A DNA stretch of 53,766 nucleotides, taken from positions 1 to 53,766 of IMG/VR virus record IMGVR_UViG_3300018080_000225; one strand, 5' to 3'. The stretch's first letter is position 1. Each line of letters begins with the position of its first letter. The stretch is from a virus. Taxonomy: Duplodnaviria > Caudoviricetes. Made by a program: the position numbers and the translations under genes. The notes under the pieces were generated by a model, which saw nothing but the letters and a program-made list of their open reading frames with translations, made no database searches and was not told where the DNA came from. Below are positions 11,222-52,652 of the stretch, in pieces.

Positions 11222-12577
11222 TTACGCGATCAAAACGCCGCCCATGTCTTGATTGAGGGTCTTCACACCACAAAGCGTGTCAAGCGTGATGACGTACTTC
11301 ATAATGCTCATGTTATAGCCGATGGTGACACGCAGCGCAATGTTGCCTGCGGCTGCGAGAGCCGAATTCACGCCAGAACCCTGATCGGCGGGACGCATCG
11401 GACGATTGACCAAGGTAAGCGCATCCTTAATCATTCCCAGATTGTAATTGGCCGGAGGACACGGACCAAGGACCGAACCGGTTACAACGGCGGCATCCAA
11501 CGGGCGGTTCAACGTGATCGCCGTGATGTTTGCGCCATCATCCGTAAGGCCGGTAATCATATACATATTACCTGCGAGGTACACACCTTGGCCAATCTTG
11601 AGGGCTGTCAGGCCCGTCACACCAGCAATTGCGATATCGCCGGAGTAATTGACCGGTAACGTCGAGGCATTACCTGTCAAATAGGACGTGATCGTGGTAA
11701 CAACGGCACCTGCTTCGGTTGCGCTCTGCAACCCCGGCCAAATCTCGATGTCGGTCGTCGGGGCCGCACCGGTAACACCTGTCACCAATTGCGGATGCGC
11801 ATCGCCTGCGATGGTCACAAACGATCCGACGGAGATGTCATCTGTACCACCCGTGGACAAGGCCAAACTGGTCGCGCCCTTGGATTGTGCAGCGGTAACG
11901 GTGAACTCGGTGGCATCCGTCAAGATACCGGGAGCTGCCACTTCCGAAGCCTGATTTGCGACGTACACATCGAAACTACGAGCGCGACCGATCCAACCAT
12001 TCAAGACAGGATCATTGGAGCGCGACGCGGTGTCGTTGAATACATCGATGCCAAGCATGTCATTCTCGGTCGACGGCCCAATGATGAGCTTGCGTTCGTC
12101 GCGAGGAATGAAGTTGCGCGTGAACTTCTCATTCAAATCACGCAGAGCCGCATCACCGACGGGCGTACCAATCGCCCCGGCGGTCGTGCCGAGGAAATTG
12201 TATGCTTCACCCATCAGGATCAAATCGATGCCTTCCGCGATTGCGCGGGCTGCCGGAACCATGAAACGTTCGCGGAGTTCCGGGAATGCCGACTGAATAT
12301 CACGATCATCCAGCTCAAAAGACACGTGTAGGTGCTGATTGAGCTTGACCGTATCGCCTTCGACGATTGCATCCTGAATGACAATCGGGCTACCCTTTTG
12401 TTTCCGCTTGGACTCGAACGTACCGGTCCGATTAATATTGACTACATCCCCGCCACGGGCGAAGAAGCCGTCATAGTCGCGATTCACAAGATTCGCGATC
12501 ACAAGATTTGCATTCAAAATGCGCAGGCTCTCAAAGGCCCACCATTCTGGAATCAATGCATTAATGTCGTTCGCCAT
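11222..12577 (-). CDS. Major capsid protein (P22 coat-like, HK97 fold) with inserted domains
   Basis: LIPEWWA..L..L..NLV...LVNRDY, GDVVNI and C-terminal LDTLCGVKTL patterns; follows the scaffold gene. Confidence 0.85.
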   Translation of the reverse strand: MANDINALIPEWWAFESLRILNANLVIANLVNRDYDGFFARGGDVVNINRTGTFESKRKQKGSPIVIQDAIVEGDTVKLNQHLHVSFELDDRDIQSAFPELRERFMVPAARAIAEGIDLILMGEAYNFLGTTAGAIGTPVGDAALRDLNEKFTRNFIPRDERKLIIGPSTENDMLGIDVFNDTASRSNDPVLNGWIGRARSFDVYVANQASEVAAPGILTDATEFTVTAAQSKGATSLALSTGGTDDISVGSFVTIAGDAHPQLVTGVTGAAPTTDIEIWPGLQSATEAGAVVTTITSYLTGNASTLPVNYSGDIAIAGVTGLTALKIGQGVYLAGNMYMITGLTDDGANITAITLNRPLDAAVVTGSVLGPCPPANYNLGMIKDALTLVNRPMRPADQGSGVNSALAAAGNIALRVTIGYNMSIMKYVITLDTLCGVKTLNQDMGGVLIA

Positions 12578-13452: not shown

Positions 13453-13914
13453 TTAGTTACCTCGAAACATTACACCTTGCTTAGTATCCGTGAGGTAAGG
13501 GGATAACAGGTTCCATGCAGTTATTGACGGAACTCCATTTGCAAAGTGTGGATCTACTAAATTAGTATCCTTAGATGATTTTAAGGAACCATAATCTTGT
13601 GATGTTTTACTAACATTACGGAACTCGTTTTCAGGGTTAATCCCTGATAAAAGAGCTAATGCAATTTCGCAACAAGCATCACGAATTTCTTGTGGTGTCA
13701 CTGGATCGCTACCCTGTGTCAATACTCTTGGCCAACTTAATACTTGATCTGATATTGCTTTCAATCCTCGAAAACTTAATGTTTCAATGATCTTGGTTGC
13801 ATGTTGCATGGCTGCTTCTTTACGATCAGCTGATGCAGCGTCCCAGGCTTCCGTAAATAACCGTCCCTGGAAATAATAATCACCATCACTCGGAAGACAA
13901 TATGAATTAGCCAT
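13453..13914 (-). CDS. Head-tail adaptor (DnaT-like/gp6-type)
   Basis: Likely start MANSYC at 13914 (GGAGG RBS); NSY...D.YF, AT..I, F.G, Q.L.WPR and P.EI..ACCEIAL motifs. Confidence 0.7.
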   Translation of the reverse strand: MANSYCLPSDGDYYFQGRLFTEAWDAASADRKEAAMQHATKIIETLSFRGLKAISDQVLSWPRVLTQGSDPVTPQEIRDACCEIALALLSGINPENEFRNVSKTSQDYGSLKSSKDTNLVDPHFANGVPSITAWNLLSPYLTDTKQGVMFRGN

Positions 13915-15772
13915 CGTCTGAACCCTCCGGTTGATAATTATCTGGCTTTGCTTTGCCACGTCCTCCCTTATCAAGATAAGGATCTTGGCTTGTATTTTTC
14001 TCGTCTTTTGCGTCTTTTCCTGGTGTACTTCCTTCGTCTGGTACACCACGCGCTGCTGCATTATCAGGTCCTGAGCTTTGTGCTGCTTTGATCCTTGCTA
14101 ATCGATTCGCATGATCTATGGATGCCTTTGCTGCTTCTCCTGGTTCATATCCTCGTGCTTGACTGGCTGTTGAATCACTTACAAAACCTGCTTCATGATC
14201 TTTTTGAAGAATTTCGGGGTCTGCTGTTGGTGCTTTGGCTTGATCAATTTCTTTATCAAACTTATCAAGATCTTTGATTGGGAGTTTTGATCCATAAAGA
14301 ATACGAACAATGTCCTTTTGTACTTTTTTCTGAAATGATCTTGATGTAACGGCTGTCTGCAATTTCCGCATCTCTTCTGCATCTTTGCGCCGTTCATCGT
14401 CAGTTTTCAAACTATACTCTTCAGGATAATCAACTTTCGTTAGATCCTGCTTACCTTCATATTCGTGCCATGCACGTACCACAAATAACTCTGCGGTATA
14501 TAGCTCCAGGCCAATAAAAGCTAATCCTGCTTCTAGCCCTTCATTATCTTTTGCCTTAGATTCTGCCGAAGCCATTTTTGCTTGCATATTTGATATCGCC
14601 AAATGCACCAATTGTCGAATCTCGAACTTGAGCTGTTCTTCTTTCTCAATTGAGGCACGGAGAGGTTCCGAAGACGGGTGAATGAATGCGGGTCTCTCCG
14701 TGCCTTTTGGGTAGCGACGGCCCGTCGAAGGGCCGACAGTAATTTCGGCGGCATCATTCTGCGGTCTACGTGGCTCTTGTGCTTGAAATACGGACTGTAC
14801 TTGCGTTTCTGCAATGACTTCATCCTCTGTTGTGAGAGTTCCTTCAAAGCCTGGAGGTGGCTCAAAATCATTGGCTTGCTCTGGCCGCTTCTTTAAGAAT
14901 TGTTGTTCAAATGGATCGTATTGTTCAACGTATATAATAAAATTAGCTGCCCATGTATACCAAACATCTGAACTTGCAAGATTCAAATGTGCTATCTGGT
15001 AATCTGCTGCATCTTGCAGCAAGCTCTCATCGATATCTGCCATGTAAAACGGGATATGTTTCAAATTCAAACGTTTTGTTGAAACTTTTGTACCGTTTGG
15101 CCCATCAAAGACATTTTTCTCAACACCTGCTTCATCATATATTGTAACTTGAACCCCATCTTCAACCTTCTTATAAAGACGATACCGTGGTTTTACATCT
15201 TTTGGTAATCCATTGGCATCAACTTCCGGGTATGTGTCACGAAGCAACAATGCAGTATAATATTCTGGCCTATTAGGATCAACAGCCCAGTTCAAAATGT
15301 CCTCTGCTTTGTAAATATAACAATAAGGATGTCCTTGTACATCTGCTCTAGTTGGCCCTTTGATCGGTGCATTATCAATAAATACACCTACTCGACCCAT
15401 AAATAACAACTCTTCAAGGATCTTACGACCCATGAAACTTGTCATCGAGCTGCCTTCACCGTCAATCCCACCTTCTTCACCTTTTGCACATGTCAAGTAA
15501 GTCTTGGAACCACCTTCACGCGATACATCATGCATTCTCAAGAATAGGGCATGTACAACTTCAAGAACTGCCTCTTTTGCAAACCCAGGATTATATGTGA
15601 TGCTTTTGCGGGTCGCAAAAACCGTAGGATCTTCTCGTTCATGCTTCTTGAGATAATTCTCGATGAACGTACGACCGCCTTTCTTCACCAATCGAAACTT
15701 CCGATACTCAATATCGTTGTAAGAAGGGTGTCGAGATAAGATCACACTATCTTTGAGTTGCTGATCAGCCAT
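13907..15772 (-). CDS. Portal protein
   Basis: 621 aa after terL; HP.Y, YL.KH.RE, GRVGVFID, I.NW, IPF and SAESK..D motifs. Confidence 0.85.
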   Translation of the reverse strand: MADQQLKDSVILSRHPSYNDIEYRKFRLVKKGGRTFIENYLKKHEREDPTVFATRKSITYNPGFAKEAVLEVVHALFLRMHDVSREGGSKTYLTCAKGEEGGIDGEGSSMTSFMGRKILEELLFMGRVGVFIDNAPIKGPTRADVQGHPYCYIYKAEDILNWAVDPNRPEYYTALLLRDTYPEVDANGLPKDVKPRYRLYKKVEDGVQVTIYDEAGVEKNVFDGPNGTKVSTKRLNLKHIPFYMADIDESLLQDAADYQIAHLNLASSDVWYTWAANFIIYVEQYDPFEQQFLKKRPEQANDFEPPPGFEGTLTTEDEVIAETQVQSVFQAQEPRRPQNDAAEITVGPSTGRRYPKGTERPAFIHPSSEPLRASIEKEEQLKFEIRQLVHLAISNMQAKMASAESKAKDNEGLEAGLAFIGLELYTAELFVVRAWHEYEGKQDLTKVDYPEEYSLKTDDERRKDAEEMRKLQTAVTSRSFQKKVQKDIVRILYGSKLPIKDLDKFDKEIDQAKAPTADPEILQKDHEAGFVSDSTASQARGYEPGEAAKASIDHANRLARIKAAQSSGPDNAAARGVPDEGSTPGKDAKDEKNTSQDPYLDKGGRGKAKPDNYQPEGSDDG

Positions 15773-16082: not shown

Positions 16083-17771
16083 TTACACCACTTTTTCTGT
16101 CATATTGATGATCGCGGTCCCGCGTTTGAACGCCAACGGGAGCGCAATTTCTGCATAATTTCGAGCGTGGCCAAAATGATCGCGACCAGCAGCCTTGTAA
16201 AAGCTCTGTGTTTCACCCTTTGCATCCTTTGCATACACACGTACCAACGCTTTAACATGATTTTTATACTCCTGTGGAATGTCCTTTGGGATATAAATTG
16301 AACCATTTATGAACCTTCCAAGTGACTGATCTAACCACACAGTACGATTAACCGTAATACGTTCACCATAATCCAAAATTTCTCGGGCATTTGCATTCTG
16401 CCCATAGTGACATAACGAAACTAAGCCCTGCGGGAATTGACGCGCAAATTTGAGTGCCGCGCGGGTATCTGGCATGTCATCAATCACGATTTTGGCTGGT
16501 TTGTAGTGTATAATCAGAGGTATTGCATCTTCAAACTCCTTGATCTTACCTACCTTTAGTACTCTAGCCTTAGCCATGAAATTAATGTCAGTCGATGGTA
16601 CAGCCTTATTAATCATGTACTGTACAATTTCATAGTGGCAATCACCACCGACATCAATACCCATTGTCGTGATATAATCTTGATTCACATAACGTGGATC
16701 ACCCATTACATAGTCACGTAAAGCACCATTAATGTGCTCGTCGGTCACGGCTGCATTAGCTACAATATGGGCCATACCCATTTTCGAGTTCCAAAACTCT
16801 TGCTCATCAGCAGCATCAATCAGACTTTTCAAATAAGCCATGGCTAATTCAACGGGCTGACCTGCTTTTGCCATGGAATACAGCTGATTAATGTAGAATC
16901 CTGCAATCTCACTGTCAGAATTCATCGGCTCCCACCAACCATCACGCAAAAATTCAACTTTTTCTTTATGCTCAAGCATCCCTTTGCATTCCTTGCAAAT
17001 CAAATGCGAGCCTTTGATCTTCGGATCAGTAATAGACTCGGCTGTTACAACCAAGCAATCCGGAAAAATCAGCTCCGTAGAACGACTACAACGCGGGCAT
17101 TTGAACATGAAATGCCGTTGGTCCGAAAGATTATACTCCTTATCTATACCAGCATTAGGCACCATCGGCGTCGAAATCAGCCATAACATAGTCAAAAGTT
17201 GGCCGCTCATACGCTCCGTAACTAAAGGGAGCACGCCTTCCGCAAATTCTTCAAATTCGTCAAGAATAACAACCCCTGCGGGGATTGATTTCATTGCTGA
17301 TCTTGACCTCGATCCGCGAATATATAAGTTATTCATTCCCGCGCGCTTATGTCCCACGTTCTTTACATTACTGAACATACGCGCGATATATTTGGAGGCT
17401 TCGAGAGCCGTATCAAACCGAGCAGCCGAAAAGTCGGTCGCATCTGGCTTGGTATTTGGTAAAACGTACAATACATCTTGGTGCATTTGATCGAGCGCAT
17501 GAAACGTTACGTTAAGCATCGTTTCCGAATAACCCATTTGAGCGGCTTTTTTACCAACATTTTTAGCAGCCTTTGACTTATGCATATCGCGAGTCCAAGG
17601 ATGATGATCGAACGAAAAAGGTCCAGCGAAAGGTGAACCCATTACCCGGTAACGGAGTGCCCATTTATCACCGTCCGACGCCAAAGAAGCGTGCAAACCC
17701 TCAGCTATGGTCGCTATGAAGGCTGCTTGCAGCTTTTGGTTTGAGAACCCTGACCTGGGTACTGTTATCAT
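16083..17771 (-). CDS. Terminase large subunit (lambda gpA-like)
   Basis: KAAQMGYS Walker A, VVILDEFE Walker B, ISTP, CPRC/CKEC Zn ribbon, GIDVG and DHFGHA nuclease motifs. Confidence 0.92.
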   Translation of the reverse strand: MITVPRSGFSNQKLQAAFIATIAEGLHASLASDGDKWALRYRVMGSPFAGPFSFDHHPWTRDMHKSKAAKNVGKKAAQMGYSETMLNVTFHALDQMHQDVLYVLPNTKPDATDFSAARFDTALEASKYIARMFSNVKNVGHKRAGMNNLYIRGSRSRSAMKSIPAGVVILDEFEEFAEGVLPLVTERMSGQLLTMLWLISTPMVPNAGIDKEYNLSDQRHFMFKCPRCSRSTELIFPDCLVVTAESITDPKIKGSHLICKECKGMLEHKEKVEFLRDGWWEPMNSDSEIAGFYINQLYSMAKAGQPVELAMAYLKSLIDAADEQEFWNSKMGMAHIVANAAVTDEHINGALRDYVMGDPRYVNQDYITTMGIDVGGDCHYEIVQYMINKAVPSTDINFMAKARVLKVGKIKEFEDAIPLIIHYKPAKIVIDDMPDTRAALKFARQFPQGLVSLCHYGQNANAREILDYGERITVNRTVWLDQSLGRFINGSIYIPKDIPQEYKNHVKALVRVYAKDAKGETQSFYKAAGRDHFGHARNYAEIALPLAFKRGTAIINMTEKVV

Positions 17772-29128: not shown

Positions 29129-29621
29129 CTAAAATATGTGTACCTTTTACGAGGAAATACTCTTCTTTGTCTTGACGAAATAATCCAATTTGTTCAGGAT
29201 CATCATCAGGTGAATGTAGTACAAAGAAACGGCCTATAGGTAACAAGCCATCCGAAGTTGATTGCTTATAAATCTCATACCACAAGATTGCGACAAGATG
29301 TGGTACCCACATGATAATACGCCAATTATCTGTGCAACCAAAGTTGAATTCCTCACCTTGGAACACTCGACGACGTGTAAAGACTGTACACTCACACATT
29401 AGAAGCTGGCCACCACAACAAGGGCATTTTTCTGCATCACAACCATAATGATGGTAGTGTTTGCCATCATTTAATCTACCACAATCATGGCAACGTCCTG
29501 TTTCTGAATCATCAAAAATGGACTCGACACAACGACGTACATCGGAACCATTTATGATAAGTGTTTCCTGAGTACAACCATCGGCAGTAATCATCTCTTG
29601 ATTACAATCAGGACAGATCAT
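29121..29621 (-). CDS. Cys/His-rich zinc-binding protein
   Basis: Likely start MICPDC after GGAGG; RCHDCG...HHYGCD.EKCPCCGGQL..CEC. Confidence 0.6.
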   Translation of the reverse strand: MICPDCNQEMITADGCTQETLIINGSDVRRCVESIFDDSETGRCHDCGRLNDGKHYHHYGCDAEKCPCCGGQLLMCECTVFTRRRVFQGEEFNFGCTDNWRIIMWVPHLVAILWYEIYKQSTSDGLLPIGRFFVLHSPDDDPEQIGLFRQDKEEYFLVKGTHILVD

Positions 29622-30648
29622 ATTTCCTCCAAAACTTAGCCTCACGCGGCTTACCATCTTTGGTAGTTGTACGATAGCAAAATGTAACAGATGAACCACG
29701 AGGGAACGTCTTATTCATAATCCAAGCTGGTGCAATTTCACCTGGATGTTCACGAGCATACTCAGTCATGTGCATAGCATCGAATTCACGTTCTTCATCT
29801 GTGAATCCACTGAGATCAAATACGTGAGTTGTACGCTTCTTAGGGTGAATCCACTCAACAGTCATGGCTCCCATTTTACCTAAGAGTTTGCTACCACGAT
29901 CAGTTTCTCGACCGAATGTGTACCCAAGCACCGTGGCTTCACTGTCAAATATCTTCTTGAGTTTGAGTAAATCCCAAGAGCGTTCCGGGGACCAACAAGA
30001 ACCTCCAGCCCGAAGCATAATACCTTCACCACCTTGTTTTGTAAGTTCTACAAGTTCATCGTCAACTAGGTAGCCCCAATCACCATCCCAATGGTCTTGT
30101 GGGTGATATAAATCAGGATATTCATCACGTAACCGTTTACGAGTCCAAACAAACTGATGGCTGCTGCTCCAAGGAACACCGGCTGCATGTGCCCATTCAA
30201 ACATTTGATCGTGTAGTTCCTCAGAAATTGGTAATGTTACAATCGGATTATTGATCAATCCTGGTGCCCATACATCCTCTAATCCGGGGATGTCGAAGCA
30301 TTTGTATCCTACGGTTGCCCATTTAGCAGGATCAGGGTTGTGTTTCTTCACAATTGAAACAAGTTCTTGAAATCTGTTGCGACCAAGCCATAATTCACCA
30401 TCCAAAGGTACAGGCGGAAGGCTATTCAGCCATGAAGCAGGTGCATAAATGATCTTACCATAGCGTGACCACAAACCAGTGGCAACTAAGCCTTTGGTAA
30501 AACGAGGCATCTTCCCTCGCGTGACACCGCCATCCCAAAAGGCCCGCATACCATCGAGTTTTTCGGACTTGAACCATGTCTCGCTTTTGAATGTTCGTGC
30601 CTGTTTGTCACAATCATGGGCAAGCATTAGGAATTCACGTTTCGCCAT
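29608..30648 (-). CDS. ATP-dependent DNA ligase
   Basis: SEKLDGMR (motif I), LDGELW, FDIP, GEGIMLR and LLKLK motifs; C-terminal OB-fold region. Confidence 0.92.
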   Translation of the reverse strand: MAKREFLMLAHDCDKQARTFKSETWFKSEKLDGMRAFWDGGVTRGKMPRFTKGLVATGLWSRYGKIIYAPASWLNSLPPVPLDGELWLGRNRFQELVSIVKKHNPDPAKWATVGYKCFDIPGLEDVWAPGLINNPIVTLPISEELHDQMFEWAHAAGVPWSSSHQFVWTRKRLRDEYPDLYHPQDHWDGDWGYLVDDELVELTKQGGEGIMLRAGGSCWSPERSWDLLKLKKIFDSEATVLGYTFGRETDRGSKLLGKMGAMTVEWIHPKKRTTHVFDLSGFTDEEREFDAMHMTEYAREHPGEIAPAWIMNKTFPRGSSVTFCYRTTTKDGKPREAKFWRKYDLS

Positions 30649-32964: not shown

Positions 32965-32993
32965 ATTATATCAAATTTAGAGGCTTATGTCAA
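32965..32993 (-). promoter_or_regulatory. Consensus sigma70 promoter
   Basis: TTGACA-17-TATAAT with TGn. Confidence 0.8.
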
Positions 32994-34269
32994 GTATTAC
33001 TTTGTCACCAAAATCTGGGCCATATGATTTATACTTCACTGGTATATTCAAGCCTTGTTCAAGAGCAAAGCACATATCATTTTCATCAAAGATATCATGA
33101 ATATAGATCGGTTCGACATTATTCATAAGATCTTTTGTTAATTGTGCTTGAGTTTCAAGGTCTGGTTCTTCACCAGGAAGTAAAATACCGTATTGCTCAC
33201 CGGTATCTTTTTGCTTATAACCTCCACAAATTTGGAGAGCTTGATGCTGGAAAATATCAAGGTGTGTAACCGCAAGATAGTGAAATGGTGCTTCATAATT
33301 GGCGGCCATAACAGCATATTTCCATAAGACAAGATCAGGCCATCCGAACCGGAAGTGCTGTTGCCATTTATTACTACAATTCACTTCATGTGGGTGAAAG
33401 ATATTTTCTGGTTTTGTTTCAGTAACCAAGGGTCCAGCCCCATGTCTTGTCATATATGATCTTACTACCCCCATAATCTCTACATTACCATAGAGGCTAG
33501 GTATACTTTCATTGATCACATCGGCTACATTTGTAGGGATAATTGTAGACCAAGTTGTATATGGATGGAAGCCATACCATTCATCTAAAAGCACTCCTTG
33601 AGCACCCTCAAAAATAACGGAGCCATCGATTGTAGGTTTTGCAATTTGTAGAGCCGATGCAATTTTAGAATAATTTTTCGCAAGATTTGCTGGCTCTTTT
33701 GAGTCAGAGAATCTTTGATAAGGTGTAACGTCAACACCCATGGAGCGACATTCTTGGAGCCTATGTTCTTGGATTCGGTGTAATTTGTCTTCACAATAGT
33801 TAAGTTCCCAAGCACGAATTACGCTTCCTGAACTATTTACAAGATCAGAACCAAGCTCACCAATGCCTTTACCACAAGATCCATGGCGATTTTTGCCACG
33901 ATGCATCTCTTTAGCTCGATTAGCCCATACATGAAAAGGTGTGATAATAGGAGTATCAGGATCAATCCAAATTTTATCTAAAGGTTTGCTTACACCTTTT
34001 TCTTGGAGTATGGTTGCCTCTTCTATGAGACTGATTGGGTTGAATAATACATGCCTGGAAAGATATGTTTTAACATTTGGCCGTTGTGATCCTGAACCAA
34101 ATTGTGAAAAGCAATGTTTGAATTCCCCATTTTTAACATTATGCCCGCATTGTGCCCCACCATTATAACGGATGACCCAATTTGTTTCACGTTCATGCAC
34201 CAAAAAATCGGTCATGGTGCCTTTACCAGAATCACCAAAACCAAGGTCAATTACTACGATCCCATCCAT
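32977..34269 (-). CDS. Adenylosuccinate synthetase-like protein (divergent PurA family)
   Basis: Start MDGIVVID at 34269 (AAGGAG). GFGDSGKG, RYNGGAQCGHNV, HGSCGKGIG, FEGAQGVLLD, HPYTT, YMTRHGAGP, RFGWPD and THLD motifs. Confidence 0.88.
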   Translation of the reverse strand: MDGIVVIDLGFGDSGKGTMTDFLVHERETNWVIRYNGGAQCGHNVKNGEFKHCFSQFGSGSQRPNVKTYLSRHVLFNPISLIEEATILQEKGVSKPLDKIWIDPDTPIITPFHVWANRAKEMHRGKNRHGSCGKGIGELGSDLVNSSGSVIRAWELNYCEDKLHRIQEHRLQECRSMGVDVTPYQRFSDSKEPANLAKNYSKIASALQIAKPTIDGSVIFEGAQGVLLDEWYGFHPYTTWSTIIPTNVADVINESIPSLYGNVEIMGVVRSYMTRHGAGPLVTETKPENIFHPHEVNCSNKWQQHFRFGWPDLVLWKYAVMAANYEAPFHYLAVTHLDIFQHQALQICGGYKQKDTGEQYGILLPGEEPDLETQAQLTKDLMNNVEPIYIHDIFDENDMCFALEQGLNIPVKYKSYGPDFGDKVILDISL

Positions 34270-34364
34270 TACATGTCTCCTTTTAGAGTGTGGGTGGGCC
34301 AGAGGAAGGGAAGAACCCTGACCCACCCTAGGCGCTCGATGAGGGTCGAGCAAACCTTGTAAAA

Positions 34365-35559: not shown

Positions 35560-36296
35560 CTAATTTGGACAGAAGGAATGCTGGTAAACAGACAAACCAA
35601 AATACACCACAAATAACCAAGAGACAGGCAACCCAAACAGGCTCAACAGACCATCAATTGCTCCATCAATGGCAAAAGTAACCATTGTAATACCAGCTCC
35701 GATCAAATACCAAGTAAACATAATATTTTCCCTATATTCCAACCGATTGTAACACTTACAATCAAAAGAATCATAACAGTATAAAGGTGTTTCGGCCCTG
35801 TTGCTTTGTAATAGTAAATGCAGATCAATGCACCAGTGATGTATAATAGACACCACCATGCAACAAGCCAAGGAATTACGAATAGCAAAGTCATACTATC
35901 TCCTTTTGTAACTACAGATCAAAAGACCTATAGCACAAGGCAAACCAACAGGCCAAAGAACGGCAGCTACCCATGCAATTATTCCATAAAGAAATACCCC
36001 ATCACCACTATCTATTGGGCCTTCAAGCAAACGAACAACTAACATGCTAAATAAGAATGTAAAAACGGCTCCTGTTACATAGAAGTAAAAGTCCATTACG
36101 TATTTCCTTTGAAAATAAGATGACCAATAGCCAAGAAAACAAAACCAATAGGGCCAAGAAATGCAGCAACCCCTATTGCCATTGTTAACATAACTAAATC
36201 ATCTTTACCAGGATTATCCGAATACTCGTTAACTAGGTATACACCATAAGCTATTGTTCCAATTATACATATAATGTATGTTAATACAGTCATCAT
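35560..36296 (-). CDS. Four small membrane proteins (35560-35721, 35703-35894, 35896-36096, 36096-36296)
   Basis: Each 53-66 aa with about two hydrophobic segments; tightly packed or overlapping. Confidence 0.65.
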
Positions 36297-37369
36297 GTTG
36301 ACATCTCCAATGGTTCAAATTGCGGCTTACCGAATACTTGTTTTTGGACCTCACGAAATGTAATCGAAGCACCCATTGCAGTGAATGGGCGGAATCTACG
36401 TTTTGGTTGAATACAATGATGTAAGAACTCAACAATTGGCTCTTCAAGCTCAAGACAAAAGTAATCGCCTCGTGCAAGAGACAAAAGACATTTTGCCGCT
36501 GCATAAATATCACAAGAAGGTAAGCAAATATGATTTTTCGTTGCTTCTGGTGCAAGAAAATCTTTATTACCTATATAGAGCATTGGCTTATCTGCATTTG
36601 TCCAATCGATTACTTGACCAAGATGCTTTTCGGCATGGATAATCACATGATGTGGGGTTACACAATTATGTGATATTTTTTGACTGTGAGCGATGGACAA
36701 TGACTCGAATATACGATTACCAATGAAACAGATTTGACGGGAATTAAGGCCATTGGGATGTGCTTTTGTAATTTGTTCAAGGTTGTACCAACCTGACTCA
36801 TAACCAGGTGGTTGAACAAATACGATCATTTTCTTCCCATTCTTATGTCGAATTGTTTCCAAGATTTTTGGTAATAACAATTGCATGTTAGCACCTTCCA
36901 TCTGAGGGAATGGCTTGAGAGCTTCGGTAAAGATTTTCAAGGTTTGAATTTCACGTTCGAGAAGATCATTGTCCGCTTTGGAATGAGGAATCTTAACTAT
37001 GCCAGAAACGTAGCAGTCACGTTTCTTTTCATAGATCTTAGTTGAGAATACACCACAAGTTTGACCTGTATGGATTTGCTCAAGATCATGATACTCATAG
37101 CGACGTGTCTCGAAAGATTGTATTTTGACAGGTTCATCTGTTTGCCAAGTACCCTTAGCAAATTTCCTTTTGGCAATATCCCAAAGATCATTCAATTTTG
37201 CTGAAGCTTGATGAGCAAGTTCGGGATTATCTGGATTGCGATCAGGATGTATCTGTTTTTGAATACGATGATACCAAGGACGTGCTTCATCTTCTGTATT
37301 TCCAAGGAATACGCTTTCTGGCTTATTACATTCCAGAAGAAGTTTGGCAGTAAGCTCAAGCTCAGTCAT
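36293..37369 (-). CDS. J-domain fused to an atypical protein kinase-like domain
   Basis: HPD motif (QIHPDRNPD); IVKIP...LLERE; catalytic loop SHNCVTPHHV without Asp; IDW in place of DFG; LAPE; DIYAAA. Confidence 0.8.
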   Translation of the reverse strand: MTELELTAKLLLECNKPESVFLGNTEDEARPWYHRIQKQIHPDRNPDNPELAHQASAKLNDLWDIAKRKFAKGTWQTDEPVKIQSFETRRYEYHDLEQIHTGQTCGVFSTKIYEKKRDCYVSGIVKIPHSKADNDLLEREIQTLKIFTEALKPFPQMEGANMQLLLPKILETIRHKNGKKMIVFVQPPGYESGWYNLEQITKAHPNGLNSRQICFIGNRIFESLSIAHSQKISHNCVTPHHVIIHAEKHLGQVIDWTNADKPMLYIGNKDFLAPEATKNHICLPSCDIYAAAKCLLSLARGDYFCLELEEPIVEFLHHCIQPKRRFRPFTAMGASITFREVQKQVFGKPQFEPLEMST

Positions 37370-37781: not shown

Positions 37782-37872
37782 TTGCCTATGGTTTGCTAAG
37801 CAAACCACAACGGGAATCGAACCCGTGACCTCGTCATTATCAGTGAAGTAACCCGATCAACCGCATAGGCAA
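37782..37872 (-). ncRNA. Truncated copy of the YrlA-like RNA, lacking the D-arm
   Basis: 37787-37873 is identical to 38222-38308 over 87 bp. Confidence 0.65.
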
Positions 37873-37985: not shown

Positions 37986-37986
37986 G

Positions 37987-38068
37987 TAGGCGAGGAGGGA
38001 CTTGAACCCTCAAGCCGCAAGAGCAGCGGATTTTAAGTCCGCCGTGTATTCCATTCCACCACTCGCCC
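37987..38068 (-). tRNA. tRNA-Leu(TAA)
   Basis: Acceptor GGGCGAG/CTCGCCT, anticodon arm GCGGA-CTTAAAA-TCCGC, long variable arm, GAGGG-TTCAAGT-CCCTC T-arm; CCA not encoded. Confidence 0.95.
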
Positions 38069-45393: not shown

Positions 45394-46821
45394 CTATGGT
45401 TGTTGTGTTCGGACGCCTTCGACAAAGAACAGTTCTTTCTTTGCTCGGGTAATTGCAACATACTTGAGATTTTGTTCTTGTTTCAATTGCCAATCGCTTG
45501 AGCATCTTGGATGTGGAAGTAATTCTGGACAAATAATGAAAATACGATCACGTTCAAGTCCTTTTGCTTTATGTACTGTTGAGTAAGTGATTCCTAATTC
45601 TTCATCTGTAAAAAGTTCACGTATAGCAGTTTCAATTCCGTCTGGTCCATAGGCTCGAAGTAAGGCTCTGAGAGTGTCAACTTGATCGTGTAGTCGAATG
45701 AGTAAGGCTTCTTTGTCTTTGAGTCGTTCAGCTTGTTGGTATTCGTATGTATCAATGTCTTCTGTTTCTAAAGGCCCATGTTTTGCGAGTTTCTTGTACA
45801 ATTCTAAGATGTCTTTTCCAATATCACGACCTAATACACATGCTTTTCGACCGTTGGCTATCATGGCTAAGGCTTCTTGTACTAATGGGGCTGTTGTTCG
45901 ACAGAGTACGAAATCTTCTTCTTCGATGATCTTACGATAGTCAGGTACATTAACTGTATTAACTGTGCCTTCTTCTTGGAAATCTGCATATTCAATATAT
46001 GGAACTACCTCTTGTGCTTTCCGAACAATGCTTTTTGCGCAACGGAAACAAATAGATAGTGGTAAAGTTTGAGCATTGAAAGCATCGATTACATGTTGCA
46101 TAGCCTCGGGATCAGCGCCTCGAAAACCATAAATGGCTTGTTTGGAATCACCAACTGCGATCACACGCCCTTTGATTCTTTTGACTATTTCAATCTGAAT
46201 TGGGTTCAAGTCCTGGGTTTCGTCAATAAAAACAATGTCGTAGTGCGGGATCGGCAAGCCTCGCACAATAGGCAAGTACAGTTGGTCATCGAAATCAACA
46301 ACCCCTGTCTTCCCGTGACCAATTTGATGTGCTTGAATGGCATACCCAATTCCTTCCATGTCTGTATCAATTTCGTAATGATCGACAAGAAATTCAATAT
46401 CCGGTGTGCTCGGATTATCCATTCCATAGGCTTTGAATAGACTTACTAGCTTAGTTACTGCACCACAATGTTTTCCAAACCGGACACGATCACGTTTGTT
46501 GAGTATCTCAAACCAAAAGATATTCTTGGTTTTATCTACATTGATCTTAACCCGACCCATGTCTTTACGGAGTACCTGCCATCCGAAACTGTTGAGTGTT
46601 GAGACATTAACATGCATTGGTACTTTGTCTTGTAAAGCCGTGACAATGTGTTTATTGAAAGCAAGGAATAACACACTTACATTACGAGGAACACGGTCAA
46701 GCGCCTCTACAATTGTGGATGTTTTGCCTGATCCTGCCACAGCTTCAATTACAATGTGAAAGTCTTCATTTTCTACGGCTGAGAATATATTTTTCTGATG
46801 TTCTGTTGGTTCATGTTTCAT
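45394..46821 (-). CDS. UvrD/Rep-like SF1 helicase
   Basis: AVAGSGKT, LAFN, IDETQD, VGDSKQAIYGFRGA, STVHKAKGLE and YVAITRAK motifs; likely start MKHEPT. Confidence 0.93.
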   Translation of the reverse strand: MKHEPTEHQKNIFSAVENEDFHIVIEAVAGSGKTSTIVEALDRVPRNVSVLFLAFNKHIVTALQDKVPMHVNVSTLNSFGWQVLRKDMGRVKINVDKTKNIFWFEILNKRDRVRFGKHCGAVTKLVSLFKAYGMDNPSTPDIEFLVDHYEIDTDMEGIGYAIQAHQIGHGKTGVVDFDDQLYLPIVRGLPIPHYDIVFIDETQDLNPIQIEIVKRIKGRVIAVGDSKQAIYGFRGADPEAMQHVIDAFNAQTLPLSICFRCAKSIVRKAQEVVPYIEYADFQEEGTVNTVNVPDYRKIIEEEDFVLCRTTAPLVQEALAMIANGRKACVLGRDIGKDILELYKKLAKHGPLETEDIDTYEYQQAERLKDKEALLIRLHDQVDTLRALLRAYGPDGIETAIRELFTDEELGITYSTVHKAKGLERDRIFIICPELLPHPRCSSDWQLKQEQNLKYVAITRAKKELFFVEGVRTQQP

Positions 46822-47638
46822 TGTCTTGTGCCTCCACTGTTTTGGCATCAATATTTCCTACAATACACGGGTTACGATACCCTATCTTAAATGATCCATC
46901 TGGATTACGTTTGTAACGTTCATCTGAGTATACTACCCAGGTTCCTTGTCGAATATGTGCTTTTGGTGCTTTACGAATCTTTGGATGCATAGCTAATACT
47001 GCGACACGATCTATCTTGGCATGTCTGAAGCAACGTGGTTTCATACTCTTGGGTATACCTGGTTTTACGAGATCAGGAAATGCTTGAAGGTAATTCAGAA
47101 TGCCAAATGTATTTTCTGCAAGATAATAACCTAATGGTGTGATCTCTTCTTTAATAGTAATTAGTGGTTTTTCTTTCGGGATAAAGGCTATTAATGTACC
47201 AGCATCAATGTTTCTCCACTGAAGTACTATTGCATCGTTTGCAGGGAATACAAGAACTGGTGGAAGTTGTTTTCCTTGGAAACGATCATGAGGATGCCAT
47301 GCAATCGAAAATATTGGCACATTACCAAATACATTTGCACAATGTTCGACTTTTGTACCTCGAACGAAGTCTACAATCCCTTGTTCGATGAAAAATGTTG
47401 GTCGATCATTCATCATCCAACCATATTCACTTGCTATAAGAATTCGCATACTTACTTGTATATCTTCAATTGAAGGTTTGTCATTTTCTGGATATGCACT
47501 AAATGCTTGTTGAGCAAAACTTTTTGCTACATCCATAATACCTTTTTGTAAATGTTCAGGAGGCAAATTACGCCAAAAAGATTCAGGTGTCTGTTTTGAT
47601 TCGATTGTAGGATCATAAATATGCCACCATAGTTTCAT
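46811..47638 (-). CDS. Hypothetical protein
   Basis: 275 aa; C-terminal RKAPKAHIRQGTW motif. Confidence 0.65.
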   Translation of the reverse strand: MKLWWHIYDPTIESKQTPESFWRNLPPEHLQKGIMDVAKSFAQQAFSAYPENDKPSIEDIQVSMRILIASEYGWMMNDRPTFFIEQGIVDFVRGTKVEHCANVFGNVPIFSIAWHPHDRFQGKQLPPVLVFPANDAIVLQWRNIDAGTLIAFIPKEKPLITIKEEITPLGYYLAENTFGILNYLQAFPDLVKPGIPKSMKPRCFRHAKIDRVAVLAMHPKIRKAPKAHIRQGTWVVYSDERYKRNPDGSFKIGYRNPCIVGNIDAKTVEAQDNET

Positions 47639-49971: not shown

Positions 49972-50325
49972 TCATTCGACATTCGGTTTTCTCCTTGTAA
50001 TTTCTACAAGCAATTGTGACTTTGACATTTTGCCATAGTAACGAATACCTAATTTTCCTGCCATTTTTCTTAACTCTTCAACTGACTTGTGAGCCAATGG
50101 CCCATGCTTCACAGTCTTTACCCATTCCCTTAATTGCCCAAGATTACCGAGGTCAATAAGCTCTTGCACCTGTTTTGTCCCATGTTGAGCAAATAGGTCT
50201 TTGAAATCCTGTGATCTTATAAGCTCTAAGATCGACCGCCATCTACTTAATTGGTATTCGACGGTTGCTGGATTACACGTTTTTTCTTTTTCTTGTCCGC
50301 CCATGAATCTAGTCCTGAATGCCAT
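49972..50325 (-). CDS. Protein with C-terminal Rho-N-like nucleic-acid-binding domain
   Basis: KSVEELRKMA.KLGI.YY.KMSKSQLL..I motif; start uncertain. Confidence 0.55.
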   Translation of the reverse strand: MAFRTRFMGGQEKEKTCNPATVEYQLSRWRSILELIRSQDFKDLFAQHGTKQVQELIDLGNLGQLREWVKTVKHGPLAHKSVEELRKMAGKLGIRYYGKMSKSQLLVEITRRKPNVE

Positions 50326-52652
50326 TCCATTTCAAGTAAAGGAACCACTTCTGTTAACTCTTCAATCGTGTCTTCAACAACTTGCTCGACACGATGCACA
50401 TATTTAGGATTAGTTGCACTCATTATCTCATCATGAATGTTAATTGGACGCACGATCCATTTACTATAACCTGATGGTTGAATTTCCCATATGTTACGTT
50501 GTACTTTCTTAGTTGCTTGAGCACCTGTTCCCTGGATAGGTGTATTAATGGCCGCACGAGCAATTTGTCCCTGTAATGAGTAACATGCTCCATAAAGTGC
50601 GGATGTTAAGGCTCCTACTGCTGTCTGTACACGATCTCCACGTACTACATTTACGTGTATGCGTCTCCATTCATCTGGGATGTTAATAGCAAGCGCAAAA
50701 AGTGTCTTGAGCACATCAAATTCAAGTGTAAAATAACGATCAAAACCCAATAACGTAGATACAGTTTGTTTAGGATCTCGCCAAACGTGTGAGGTTCCTT
50801 GTCCATCGGGTTGATGGATCGGTGAGTAATTTTCCATCGTTTTTGAACGAGCTTCACTGACTTTACGGAATCTTCTGCTGAATGCATTGAGTCCTGCTTT
50901 TGCTTGTTCTCGTGGTATTCCGAGTCTCTTTTGAAATGAATACTCGGTTCCTGCAAATAACCATGTAAATAACCCCGATTTACTGATCGTATAATAGTCT
51001 GGAGTCTGCCCATCTGATGCGATAATATCTTCATAGCTGAGACCTGGGTAGATAAATGTTCCAAAGAGAGCATGGATTTTAGTTCTAACTGTTCCCAATC
51101 CATCACATTCATAACAATCGACTTCTTGTCCTTTCGTTTTACTTTTCTTACGATCATCTATACAGCGTAATGATCCATGACATCGATGGCACTCTCGATC
51201 TTCTCTTAGTGCTGCTCGAAGTTCAGGATCATCATAAACAGCATCGGCAATCGTGACTTCAAATCCTGAGAAGTCACCACCGCATAAGTCTTCATCATCT
51301 TCTGCCCAAGCTAATGGGAATTTTGATCTTACGATCTTGGTTTTCTTGATACCTTGTGGATTGAGCTTATCAGCTCCTGCCATTCTGGAACTCAATGTCC
51401 CTAACACTTTGAATGATGCATGGAATCTATCTGCAATTAAGAGTTTGTTATACAGTTCAACCTCTTTTTGCGCCCTTCTTGCATCATAGACTTCTTTTGC
51501 ACGAGTCGATGCCTCGGTTTCCCAAGACATGATCTCTAAAAGTGACTCCTTGTCTGTTGAGTCTGTCATAACTAATGCTTCAACAGGATCAAGCACTTCT
51601 TTAATATAACGTAAAGCGGCTGCTGGTGCTGTCGGAACATCTTGTCCTGCATATTTGCCTTCTTTGATCTTCTTTGACGCTAAGGCAATCTCTTTTAATT
51701 CTCTTATTCCATCAAGATCAACCTTGAAACCCTTCCAACGAACTGCTCCAACCATGGCAGCTAGTGTAGAATCATCGTCTCCTGGTTCCATATTGAAATG
51801 ATTGTATAACATACGGGTGAATTTGACATCATCCCCTGCATACTTTTGAGCAGTTGGTCTAAAACCCCAATGTCTTATATGATATTCAATCCATTGAGGC
51901 CACGCCCCTTTCCACTTCCCTCGGAATTTCTTCTTCCCCTTGCCTTTCCACTCGGGTAACTTACCTACGGCTTTTGCATAAGGGGCATAACCAAGTTCTA
52001 AAGGCGAAAATTGTGCAGGTACACCTACTACATCATAATCAACTGTTTTTTCTCCAAAGATGTTCTCGATCAATGGCTTCAATGCAGTAGATGGAGCAAA
52101 AGATACATAGACATTTACAAACTTTTCATCTTTTGTTTCTTGTATACGCCATGCTGGTCCGGGGACTTTACGTCTTGCAAAGAACAAAGGCTCGAAAGGT
52201 AAGGCTTCATTTAGCCAATCACATACACGTCCCGCAAGTACAGCCGGAATTCTACGAATGTATATGTTCTTACGATCCATTGTTGACTGGTACGGGCCTT
52301 TACGCACATTCAACATTACATCACAACATTTTGCTGGTTTGAGGCAACCAAGATCACGAGCATCCTCTTCAAGTTCAGCATATCTTTCAGCATCAAGAAA
52401 CTCGTCGTATGGATGACGTTGCTGATACAGCCGAAGACAGGTATAGAGTTGACAGATATGAAACCAATCAAATGCCAGATGAAAAGCTATTACACAATTA
52501 TCTGCTATCTCCTCGATCAATAGTACGGTATCAGAAATAGGCACACGCCAAACTTCATGCAAGACTATAGGGCCATCATTTTTGGCATATTGGATCAATA
52601 CAACCGGACCATGAAAGCCACAACATTCGGTATCTATAAAATAGTTATCCAC
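50247..52652 (-). CDS. Family A DNA polymerase with 3'-5' exonuclease
   Basis: IDTE, HLAFD and YA.DD exonuclease motifs; GTLSSRM..NPQ; motif A DFSGFE; NTPIQGTGA; motif C IHDEI. Confidence 0.9.
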   Translation of the reverse strand: MDNYFIDTECCGFHGPVVLIQYAKNDGPIVLHEVWRVPISDTVLLIEEIADNCVIAFHLAFDWFHICQLYTCLRLYQQRHPYDEFLDAERYAELEEDARDLGCLKPAKCCDVMLNVRKGPYQSTMDRKNIYIRRIPAVLAGRVCDWLNEALPFEPLFFARRKVPGPAWRIQETKDEKFVNVYVSFAPSTALKPLIENIFGEKTVDYDVVGVPAQFSPLELGYAPYAKAVGKLPEWKGKGKKKFRGKWKGAWPQWIEYHIRHWGFRPTAQKYAGDDVKFTRMLYNHFNMEPGDDDSTLAAMVGAVRWKGFKVDLDGIRELKEIALASKKIKEGKYAGQDVPTAPAAALRYIKEVLDPVEALVMTDSTDKESLLEIMSWETEASTRAKEVYDARRAQKEVELYNKLLIADRFHASFKVLGTLSSRMAGADKLNPQGIKKTKIVRSKFPLAWAEDDEDLCGGDFSGFEVTIADAVYDDPELRAALREDRECHRCHGSLRCIDDRKKSKTKGQEVDCYECDGLGTVRTKIHALFGTFIYPGLSYEDIIASDGQTPDYYTISKSGLFTWLFAGTEYSFQKRLGIPREQAKAGLNAFSRRFRKVSEARSKTMENYSPIHQPDGQGTSHVWRDPKQTVSTLLGFDRYFTLEFDVLKTLFALAINIPDEWRRIHVNVVRGDRVQTAVGALTSALYGACYSLQGQIARAAINTPIQGTGAQATKKVQRNIWEIQPSGYSKWIVRPINIHDEIMSATNPKYVHRVEQVVEDTIEELTEVVPLLEMEWHSGLDSWADKKKKKRVIQQPSNTN

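Follow-up and report, generated by a model that had tools for sequence, protein, structure and literature searches.

A PurA-like protein with altered substrate sites, encoded in a phage cassette with a vWA protein and a J-domain pseudokinase

The cassette at the locus

The stretch of DNA analysed here (the window) comprises an entire virus record of IMG/VR (IMGVR_UViG_3300018080_000225; 53,766 bases), estimated to be about 62% complete, in which nearly all genes lie on the minus strand in a siphovirus-like layout. One of these genes (32977..34269) encodes a protein of 430 amino acids related to adenylosuccinate synthetase (AdSS; PurA). A first, sequence-only reading had described this gene product as neither canonical PurA nor PurZ, the enzyme of phages with 2-aminoadenine (Z) DNA, and had noted a replaced aspartate-binding loop. 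In a conserved cassette the gene comes last, after those of a J-domain pseudokinase and a vWA protein, and sequence comparison assigns its product to an uncharacterised, distinct branch of the adenylosuccinate-synthetase fold. The coordinates of the features are collected in Table 1.

For the phage comparison, all minus-strand open reading frames (ORFs) of the window were compared with the ORFs of 81 loci (mycobacteriophage I3 and 80 of 169 IMG/VR loci). The bacterial comparison used the best 80 of at least 566 stretches in species-representative genomes. The only window proteins that recurred in the phage loci were the PurA-like protein (81/81), a vWA protein of 340 residues (77/81) and a kinase-like protein (49/81, E ≤ 1e-5). 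In those 77 phage loci the vWA gene stands beside the PurA-like gene, with order and strand preserved. Among the bacterial loci the vWA gene was a neighbour in 77 of 80 and the pseudokinase gene in 68 of 80; the gene order was constant (kinase, 340-residue protein, PurA-like protein, all on one strand) and stop and start codons often overlapped. The sequence-only reading missed both conserved partners. Six relatives of the PurA-like protein were longer than 753 residues, among them three fusions of an N-terminal vWA part to a C-terminal PurA-like part (P0121, 776 residues; P0122, 754 residues; P0123, 936 residues; hhalign probability 100, one record each) and two intein-bearing PurA proteins. 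Complex prediction for the PurA-like and vWA proteins gave a score of 0.00 in two runs, with the controls not folded, which speaks neither for nor against a complex. In PADLOC-DB no model matched the PurA-like or the vWA protein, and the kinase received weak generic kinase hits.

The frame of the PurA-like gene is uninterrupted, as the sequence-only reading had it. A longer frame from a TTG at 34353 is an unlikely start, because a Shine–Dalgarno sequence precedes the ATG at 34269 and the homologues begin at the same residue as this ATG. The translation contains GFGDSGKGT (residues 10–18), CGHNV (41–45), HGSCGKGIGE (129–138) and EVNCSNKWQQHFRFGW (295–310). The catalytic aspartate (in GDSGKG) and histidine (in GHNV) and the string GSCGKGIG in place of GT/ST..GIG, all noticed earlier, are therefore present as described.

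The 340-residue partner gave no hit in a Pfam scan. Its AlphaFold2 (AF2) model had a mean predicted local distance difference test (pLDDT) score of 88.5, the confidence within the N-terminal region being lowest at residues 1–7, and Foldseek matched it to vWA and integrin I domains with probability 1.0 and a template-modelling (TM) score to the target of up to 0.61. The protein carries a motif of the metal-ion-dependent adhesion site (MIDAS) type, D73-x-T75-G-S77, and a disordered tail that ends in Arg-Leu. Its two ends were compared across 227 loci, 197 of them with a vWA hit. Met-Gly starts the protein in 147 of the 150 alignments that reach residues 1–3, M1 and G2 are unchanged in 35 of 35 alignment rows, and the protein ends in Arg-Leu in 92 of the 197 loci. 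Among 1.84 billion sequences, a vWA profile matched 2550 cluster representatives with E ≤ 0.001, of which 1102 reached E ≤ 1e-30; in almost every one of the 150 matches listed, the alignment starts at residue 1 of the matched protein.

In the kinase-like protein, which gave weak Pkinase and DnaJ hits, the HPD motif of the J domain is near-invariant. The catalytic loop reads H-N-C in the window and H-G-A in the family and is without the catalytic aspartate, for which reason the protein is taken to be a pseudokinase. The pseudokinase gene is set apart from the vWA gene by three small hydrophobic ORFs. They had no homologues in the 81 related phage loci; they split the cassette in this phage only and stand outside the conserved cassette. 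They are apparently translationally coupled to the pseudokinase gene.

Fold, substrate sites and phylogeny

The PurA-like protein matched PF00709 (Adenylsucc_synt) over residues 5–373 (E = 2.7e-60, 204.7 bits), which bears out its earlier naming. Against the curated PurA equivalog models it scored 2.5–3 times below the cut-offs (NF002223, 159 bits, cut-off 402; TIGR00184, 139.2 bits, cut-off 395.55), and against the PurZ model NF038379 it scored 45 bits (cut-off 300). It matched phrog_1211 over its full length (E = 1.1e-73), a family with a PurZ-derived name in which, however, several kinds of protein are pooled. In a sequence search of solved structures enterobacterial PurA was best (about E 1e-32), and the PurZ entries aligned over residues 5–87 only (about E 8e-4). 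An AF2 model based on 65 relatives had a pLDDT of 95.1 and a predicted TM score (pTM) of 0.93; the sole dip in confidence (pLDDT about 70) fell at residues 291–300, in the rebuilt loop. Foldseek placed E. coli PurA first (1CG3/1ADE; TM 0.80, 24% identity) and PurZ/PurZ0 well below it (TM 0.56–0.59). The predicted structure is a full-length PurA fold.

Active-site positions of E. coli PurA were mapped onto a 72-row MAFFT alignment, and the 60 rows that belong to the clade described below were counted (E. coli numbering, with window residues in brackets where they were assigned). G12, D13, K16, G17, H41 (H43) and Q224 are kept in all 60 rows, T239 and R306 in 59, and the guanine-reading residues D333 (D338) and S414 (S415) in 57 and 53, respectively. 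G12, D13, K16, G17, Q224 and T239 have the same numbers in the window protein, which retains them all.

The aspartate loop is different. A phmmer alignment with E. coli PurA (1ADE) set SNKWQQHFR of the window protein against GATTGRRRR. In the 72-row alignment T300 of E. coli is replaced in the window protein by Trp (W302), T301 by Gln (Q303) and R305 by Phe (F306), and R303 is deleted. In the clade T300 is replaced by Trp, Tyr or Phe in 57/60 rows, T301 by Gln in 60/60 and R305 by Phe in 49/60, and R303 is deleted in 60/60. From the alignment, the four aspartate ligands are lost clade-wide. In E. coli R303 touches both the ribose O2' of inosine monophosphate (IMP) and aspartate, and the tip of the Thr-rich loop of PurZ contacts aspartate, as stated in PMC8342488; in H. 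pylori AdSS a sulfate is described at two arginines of the aspartate site, Arg294 and Arg296 (PMC11571797).

The site of the IMP 5'-phosphate has been rebuilt as well. Table 3 of PMC11571797 lists hydrogen bonds from H. pylori AdSS to IMP for the equivalents of D13, N38, G127, T129, T239, V273, R303 and R143 of the other subunit. In the clade N38 is Gln in 59/60 rows (Q40), T129 is Cys in 56/60 (C132) and the position of R143 holds no Arg; three of the four phosphate ligands are thus changed in the alignment, T239 alone being kept. Further replacements are I126 by His (58/60; H129), V273 by His (60/60; H276), P135 by Glu (47/60) and K331 by His or Cys (57/60). The signatures of the clade in window numbering are Q40, H129-G-S-C132, E138, T-R-H276-G and N297...W302-Q303..F306-R307.G309-W; Q40, H129-G-S-C132, H276, W302-Q303 and F306-R307 were all found in the window protein. 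Because His129, Cys132, His276, Trp302 and Gln303 are as conserved as the catalytic residues, the pocket appears to be re-tooled rather than decayed. Together, His129, Cys132 and His276 might bind a metal. The earlier remark that the G.TTGR.R loop is replaced was correct and understated the change, since it left the phosphate site out; it also treated as a peculiarity of a single gene a feature that marks a family with thousands of members.

The PurZ/PurZ0 rows of the alignment differ from the clade at these positions. Ser occupies position 13 in all four (phiVC8 and PMBT28 read QFGSTGKG, in line with the GSTGKG quoted for PurZ by the sequence-only reading), and N38, T129, R143, V273, T300 and R305 are retained. 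The Asp-to-Ser exchange is reported for 100% of 147 phage PurZ sequences (PMC12884076).

Of 8000 candidates scored in a large protein database, 7392 were relatives at E ≤ 1e-10. The top 120 are 37–55% identical to the PurA-like protein, and canonical PurA about 28%. The clade rows of the trees were database proteins, phage loci and bacterial paralogues. They were combined with eight canonical PurA rows (from the same bacterial genomes as the paralogues, and one E. coli-like fragment), three PurZ rows (S-2L, phiVC8 and PMBT28) and one PurZ0 row (Arthrobacter phage Wayne, on a long branch); archaeal short PurA and eukaryotic PurA were left out. In the main tree (44 rows; IQ-TREE, LG+G4, 1000 ultrafast bootstraps) all 32 clade rows fell on one side of a single branch with support 100/100, the eight canonical PurA rows were together with 99/99 and the four PurZ/PurZ0 rows with 100/98. 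Each of the three groups was present in 100% of 200 bootstrap trees. A quick tree of all 72 rows concurred, with a 60-row clade, a Shimodaira–Hasegawa-like approximate likelihood-ratio (SH-aLRT) support of 100 and a stem length of 1.05. These trees set the gene outside canonical PurA, at least as represented by eight rows, and together with the sub-cut-off scores and the lack of the PurZ-type Ser they uphold the view that it is neither canonical PurA nor PurZ. Judged by sequence, the rebuilt loop marks a large clade that stands apart from both.

The window protein grouped with P0002 and P0003 (55% identity, as for P0004) in a subclade with copies from Saccharibacteria and other ultra-small bacteria. 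A megablast search with 20 kb of the window gave no match in the phage collection, and a metagenome scan gave 67 loci, none above 41% identity.

Ten bacterial genomes with the paralogue were searched for canonical PurA. Seven also hold it, at 528–612 bits or as two halves at contig ends; the paralogues score 194–231 bits in the genomes with both. In two Micromonosporaceae chromosomes (G001, locus L101; G002, locus L107) the cassette lies 10–17 kb from canonical purA. In G001 purB follows about 7 kb beyond the paralogue, which may be coincidence or a purine/NAD neighbourhood (NAD, nicotinamide adenine dinucleotide).

Proposed reaction and its alternatives

We consider it probable, if far from certain, that the PurA-like protein is a ligase driven by GTP whose substrate has changed and whose nucleophile is not free aspartate, and that it is tied to NAD/ADP-ribose biology. 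The γ-phosphate of GTP would be transferred to the carbonyl oxygen of a purine-like (lactam) substrate, and the activated carbon would then be attacked by an amine other than free L-aspartate, with displacement of the phosphate. The substrate would not be a plain nucleoside 5'-monophosphate held in the manner of PurA. The sequence-only reading had suggested a different amine donor or acceptor, which fits the clade-wide absence of the aspartate ligands and the occurrence of a normal PurA alongside the paralogue and is still conjecture. From the gene neighbourhoods, the reaction may be coupled to the vWA protein, which would regulate it, act as a scaffold or be its substrate.

The tie to NAD is suggested by other neighbours. 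A gene for an NrtR-like protein (NUDIX and NrtR_WHD in Pfam) flanks 53 of the 80 bacterial loci, mostly directly upstream of the pseudokinase gene, and 9 of the 80 phage loci. NrtR is described as a repressor of NAD genes that is released by ADP-ribose (PMC2330246). Recurrent extra neighbours in the phage loci were Nampt-type (NAPRTase and NAMPT_N), Nudix, NMNAT-like and Prs-like genes. When whole records of up to 512 kb were considered, a gene of the NAPRTase/Nampt family was present in 18 of 80 (12/50 and 6/30); in 13 of these 18 it lies 0.2–4.9 kb from the PurA-like gene and in the remaining five 26–127 kb away. In bacteria the cassette may thus be switched on through NrtR upon accumulation of ADP-ribose, and phages may deploy it with genes for rebuilding NAD, the likeliest purpose being to keep an infection going while NAD is destroyed by defences of the host.

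Three further observations belong to this subject. In two phage loci (L069 and L070) a weakly matching NAPRTase-family gene and a Prs-like gene, the makeup of the NARP1 pair, immediately precede the PurA-like gene, and the vWA gene is displaced by about 3 kb. Upstream of its vWA gene the window has two palindromes of 21 bases, 92 bases apart, whose core GT-N7-AC is of the NrtR type; both pair at 8 of 10 arm positions, and a promoter-like site has its −10 hexamer overlapped by the second. Palindromes of this type number four in the window, against a mean of 0.86 (maximum 3) in 100 shuffled sequences. In 763 kb from 58 phage loci 20 sites were found, with no enrichment upstream of the cassette; the sequence case for the window palindromes as NrtR operators is weak, and NrtR control is for this reason not claimed for phages. 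Finally, Table 1 of Rodionov 2008 (PMC2330246) names the NrtR targets nrtX-nrtY without describing them. These might be the cassette genes.

Several points weigh against the favoured reading. The ligase chemistry is read from sequence and model, and the retained Asp13, His43, Gln224 and Thr239 and the guanine-reading residues would also suit an enzyme acting on IMP. The tree holds only eight canonical rows, none of them archaeal. Three of the ten bacterial genomes (two Saccharibacteria and one 1.1-Mb genome) hold only the paralogue, where a housekeeping, AMP-forming role is conceivable. Each of the three fusions comes from one record and could reflect a frameshift error, since the vWA and PurA-like genes often overlap by 4 bases. 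As to the NAD link, 41 of the 53 NrtR-linked loci are from the Micromonospora group (39 Micromonospora, one Verrucosispora and one Plantactinospora) and so are not independent. A Nampt-type gene occurs in only 18 of the 80 phage records, and about nine of the 13 adjacent cases are independent because there are near-duplicates among them (L030/L031; L069/L070; L039/L051/L052). PHROGs, Pfam and NrtR scans found no NrtR, Nampt, NMNAT or Nudix gene among the window ORFs. Anti-defence genes of phages cluster in islands, and adjacency therefore need not mean a single pathway.

It is unlikely, though worth setting out, that the enzyme acts on its neighbour, the amine of the N-terminal Gly of the vWA protein (after removal of Met) taking the place of aspartate and a GTP-activated purine nucleotide becoming attached covalently to this protein. 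The near-constant Met-Gly start, the model confidence of residues 1–7, which is the lowest in the N-terminal region, and the almost universal adjacency of the two genes agree with this idea, as do the three fusions, which leave the vWA N-terminus free; the exchange of carboxylate-binding Arg and Thr for Trp, Gln and Phe is what a peptide, and not a dicarboxylate, would call for. The idea is nevertheless drawn purely from conservation, and Gly2 may be conserved for reasons of structure or stability. We know of no precedent for an enzyme of the PurA family that acts on a protein and found none, and the changed IMP-phosphate site and the NAD link are left unexplained. In an extended form, which we regard as doubtful, the cassette would be a protein-tagging device in which a nucleotide is joined to the vWA Gly and the marked adaptor is handled by the J-domain pseudokinase with Hsp70 in response to NAD breakdown during infection.

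That the protein is a true AdSS, merely divergent, is also improbable. As an auxiliary metabolic gene it would convert IMP, Asp and GTP to adenylosuccinate and raise the supply of AMP and ATP in infection. The full-length PurA fold, the retained catalytic and guanine-reading residues (Asp338 and Ser415 in the window) and the database label 'adenylosuccinate synthase' of its relatives speak for this, as do the small-genome bacteria with only the paralogue, one of which has a PurB-like gene close to the cut-off (323.6 bits against 326.2). The other two of these three genomes show no PurB, which counts against a true AdSS; this is weak evidence, because they are metagenome-assembled genomes (MAGs) and possibly incomplete. 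More telling against a true AdSS are the clade-wide loss of the aspartate ligands and of three of the four phosphate ligands, the scores far below the equivalog cut-offs, the normal PurA already present in seven of ten genomes and the linkage to vWA and pseudokinase genes, which has no counterpart in purine biosynthesis.

Less credible again is a protein that binds GTP without catalysis and serves as a regulatory or scaffold subunit in a complex of vWA protein, pseudokinase and Hsp70. The partners, a pseudokinase and an adaptor-type vWA domain, and the two substrate subsites, both unlike those of PurA, fit such a role. Against it, Asp13, Lys16, His43 and Gln224 are kept in 60/60 rows from phages and many bacterial phyla, and new conserved polar residues (Q40, H129, C132, H276, Q303) line the former substrate site, as in a site re-tooled rather than decayed.

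An enzyme of the PurZ/PurZ0 type, making the 2-aminoadenine precursor from dGMP and Asp for Z-containing phage DNA, is suggested by the name of phrog_1211, by the phage-borne gene and by the family A DNA polymerase of the window, but is so improbable in view of the PurZ score, Asp13 where the PurZ/PurZ0 rows have Ser, the ligands that PurZ keeps and the clade does not, the separate clade, the structural match to PurZ of only TM 0.57–0.59 and the want of DatZ or MazZ in the window that it was rejected. The search for Z-cluster neighbours (DatZ HD phosphohydrolase, MazZ/DUF550 with its MazG domain, DutZ/DmtZ) with PHROGs and Pfam found none among the window ORFs; as the window is about 62% of the genome, this does not prove their absence from the whole phage. 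The sequence-only reading had also proposed a check of the virion DNA; the idea of base modification behind it gained no support within the same limit.

Genome setting and known systems

The remaining features of the window are listed in Table 1. The 223-residue protein with DNA polymerase beta thumb and palm is unusual beside a family A polymerase. DUF1937 and DUF4406, matched by the 143-residue protein, are presumably of the nucleoside 2-deoxyribosyltransferase-like group, and the protein is possibly another nucleotide-handling enzyme of the phage. The tRNA-Leu(taa) is the sole tRNA called. About 160 bases downstream of it, the terminator scan gave a hairpin with the tRNA T-arm sequence GGTTCGATTCC, which may be a tRNA remnant; neither ARAGORN nor Rfam called a second tRNA there. 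The vWA protein and the pseudokinase of the window are closest to those of L084 and L085 (Saccharibacteria and unclassified MAGs) and of the phage locus L006, with 51–54% and 33–38% identity, respectively, against about 25–33% elsewhere. Since these copies are so much closer, their sequences hint at a host among the ultra-small bacteria of the candidate phyla radiation (CPR), or at a neighbour of one.

Table 1. Features of the window, with the cassette and its surroundings first
Feature	Coordinates	Strand	Basis or remark
PurA-like gene (predicted ligase), 430 residues, cassette-type clade	32977..34269	-	Translation, Pfam, alignments, model, tree
Shine–Dalgarno AAGGAG	34277..34282	-	Read from sequence; 7 nt before ATG at 34269
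vWA-fold partner, 340 residues	34365..35387	-	phrog_2971, AF2 model, Foldseek; directly upstream of PurA-like gene, 95 bases
Small hydrophobic ORF, 63 residues	35703-35894	-	Between pseudokinase and vWA genes
Small hydrophobic ORF, 66 residues	35896-36096	-	Between pseudokinase and vWA genes
Small hydrophobic ORF, 66 residues	36096-36296	-	Between pseudokinase and vWA genes
J-domain and kinase-like protein (pseudokinase)	36293..37369	-	phrog_3043; weak Pkinase and DnaJ hits; alignment
Palindrome, GT-N7-AC core	35744-35764
Palindrome, GT-N7-AC core	35836-35856
Promoter-like site	35871..35843
Tape measure protein	1-5076
Major head protein	11222-12577
Portal protein	13907-15772
Large terminase	16083-17771
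Protein of 223 residues	25745-26416	-	DNA polymerase beta thumb (E 4.2e-17) and palm
DNA ligase	29608-30648
Hairpin	37810-37826		Terminator scan
tRNA-Leu(taa)	37986-38068
Protein of 143 residues	44675-45106	-	DUF1937 (E 5.4e-15), weak DUF4406
UvrD-type helicase	45394-46851
Family A DNA polymerase	50247-52652

To our knowledge, the chemistry of PurA (GTP activation of a purine carbonyl, then attack by an amine) is known from two jobs only, the making of AMP and of the 2-aminoadenine of Z-genome phages. The clade, with relatives in 169 phage contigs and at least 566 stretches of species-representative bacterial genomes, would be a third branch of this chemistry in which both substrate sites are re-tooled. 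Its product, if identified, would bring to the NAD-centred conflict between phages and bacteria either a nucleotide metabolite or a type of protein mark that is new, and the cassette might explain nrtX-nrtY, which in 2008 were left without an assignment. The literature searches found no study of the clade or the cassette, only genome announcements that use the label 'PurA-like' for mycobacteriophage genes.

Bacterial PurA (EC 6.3.4.4; E. coli 1ADE and 1CG0–1CG4; TIGR00184, NF002223) shares with the clade the fold and length (TM 0.80, 24% identity), the P-loop GDxGKG, the catalytic Asp13 and His41, Gln224, Thr239 and the guanine-reading Asp333 and Ser414. The clade differs in the replaced T300, T301 and R305, the deleted R303, the three changed phosphate ligands and the His at V273; it scores below the curated cut-offs, is separate in the tree and is encoded with vWA and pseudokinase genes. 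PurZ and PurZ0 (phiVC8, S-2L, PMBT28, Wayne; NF038379; 6FM1, 7ODX, 7VF6) are likewise phage-borne PurA paralogues of altered specificity and fall in the same PHROG. PurZ, however, has Ser for the catalytic Asp, retains the aspartate and phosphate ligands, is of the short type (about 340–380 residues, TM 0.56–0.59 to the PurA-like model) and is accompanied by DatZ/MazZ, neither of which was seen in the window.

The closest named relatives are the 'PurA-like adenylosuccinate synthetases' of the cluster C mycobacteriophages (I3 gene 273, Bxz1 group), which belong to the same clade and are 37% identical over the full length. In the public annotation of I3, a kinase (gene 270), a 340-residue protein (gene 271; 1023 bases) and the PurA-like gene (273) follow one another as in the cassette. 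One small gene lies between the vWA-sized and PurA-like genes of I3, whereas the window has its three small ORFs between the pseudokinase and vWA genes. The cluster C phages, at about 155 kb, are myoviruses that infect Mycobacterium; the window is a siphovirus-like record of another lineage.

The NAD-rebuilding pathways NARP1 (Adps and Namat), NARP2 (Nampt and Nmnat) and NARP3 (PnuC and NadR), in the form in which they are described in the sources available, include no PurA-like, vWA or J-pseudokinase protein, and their NAD genes are not in the window. The Nampt-type, NMNAT-like and Prs-like genes that stand beside the cassette in a subset of the phages are of the same kinds, which suggests that the cassette and the NARP pathways serve on the same battlefield.

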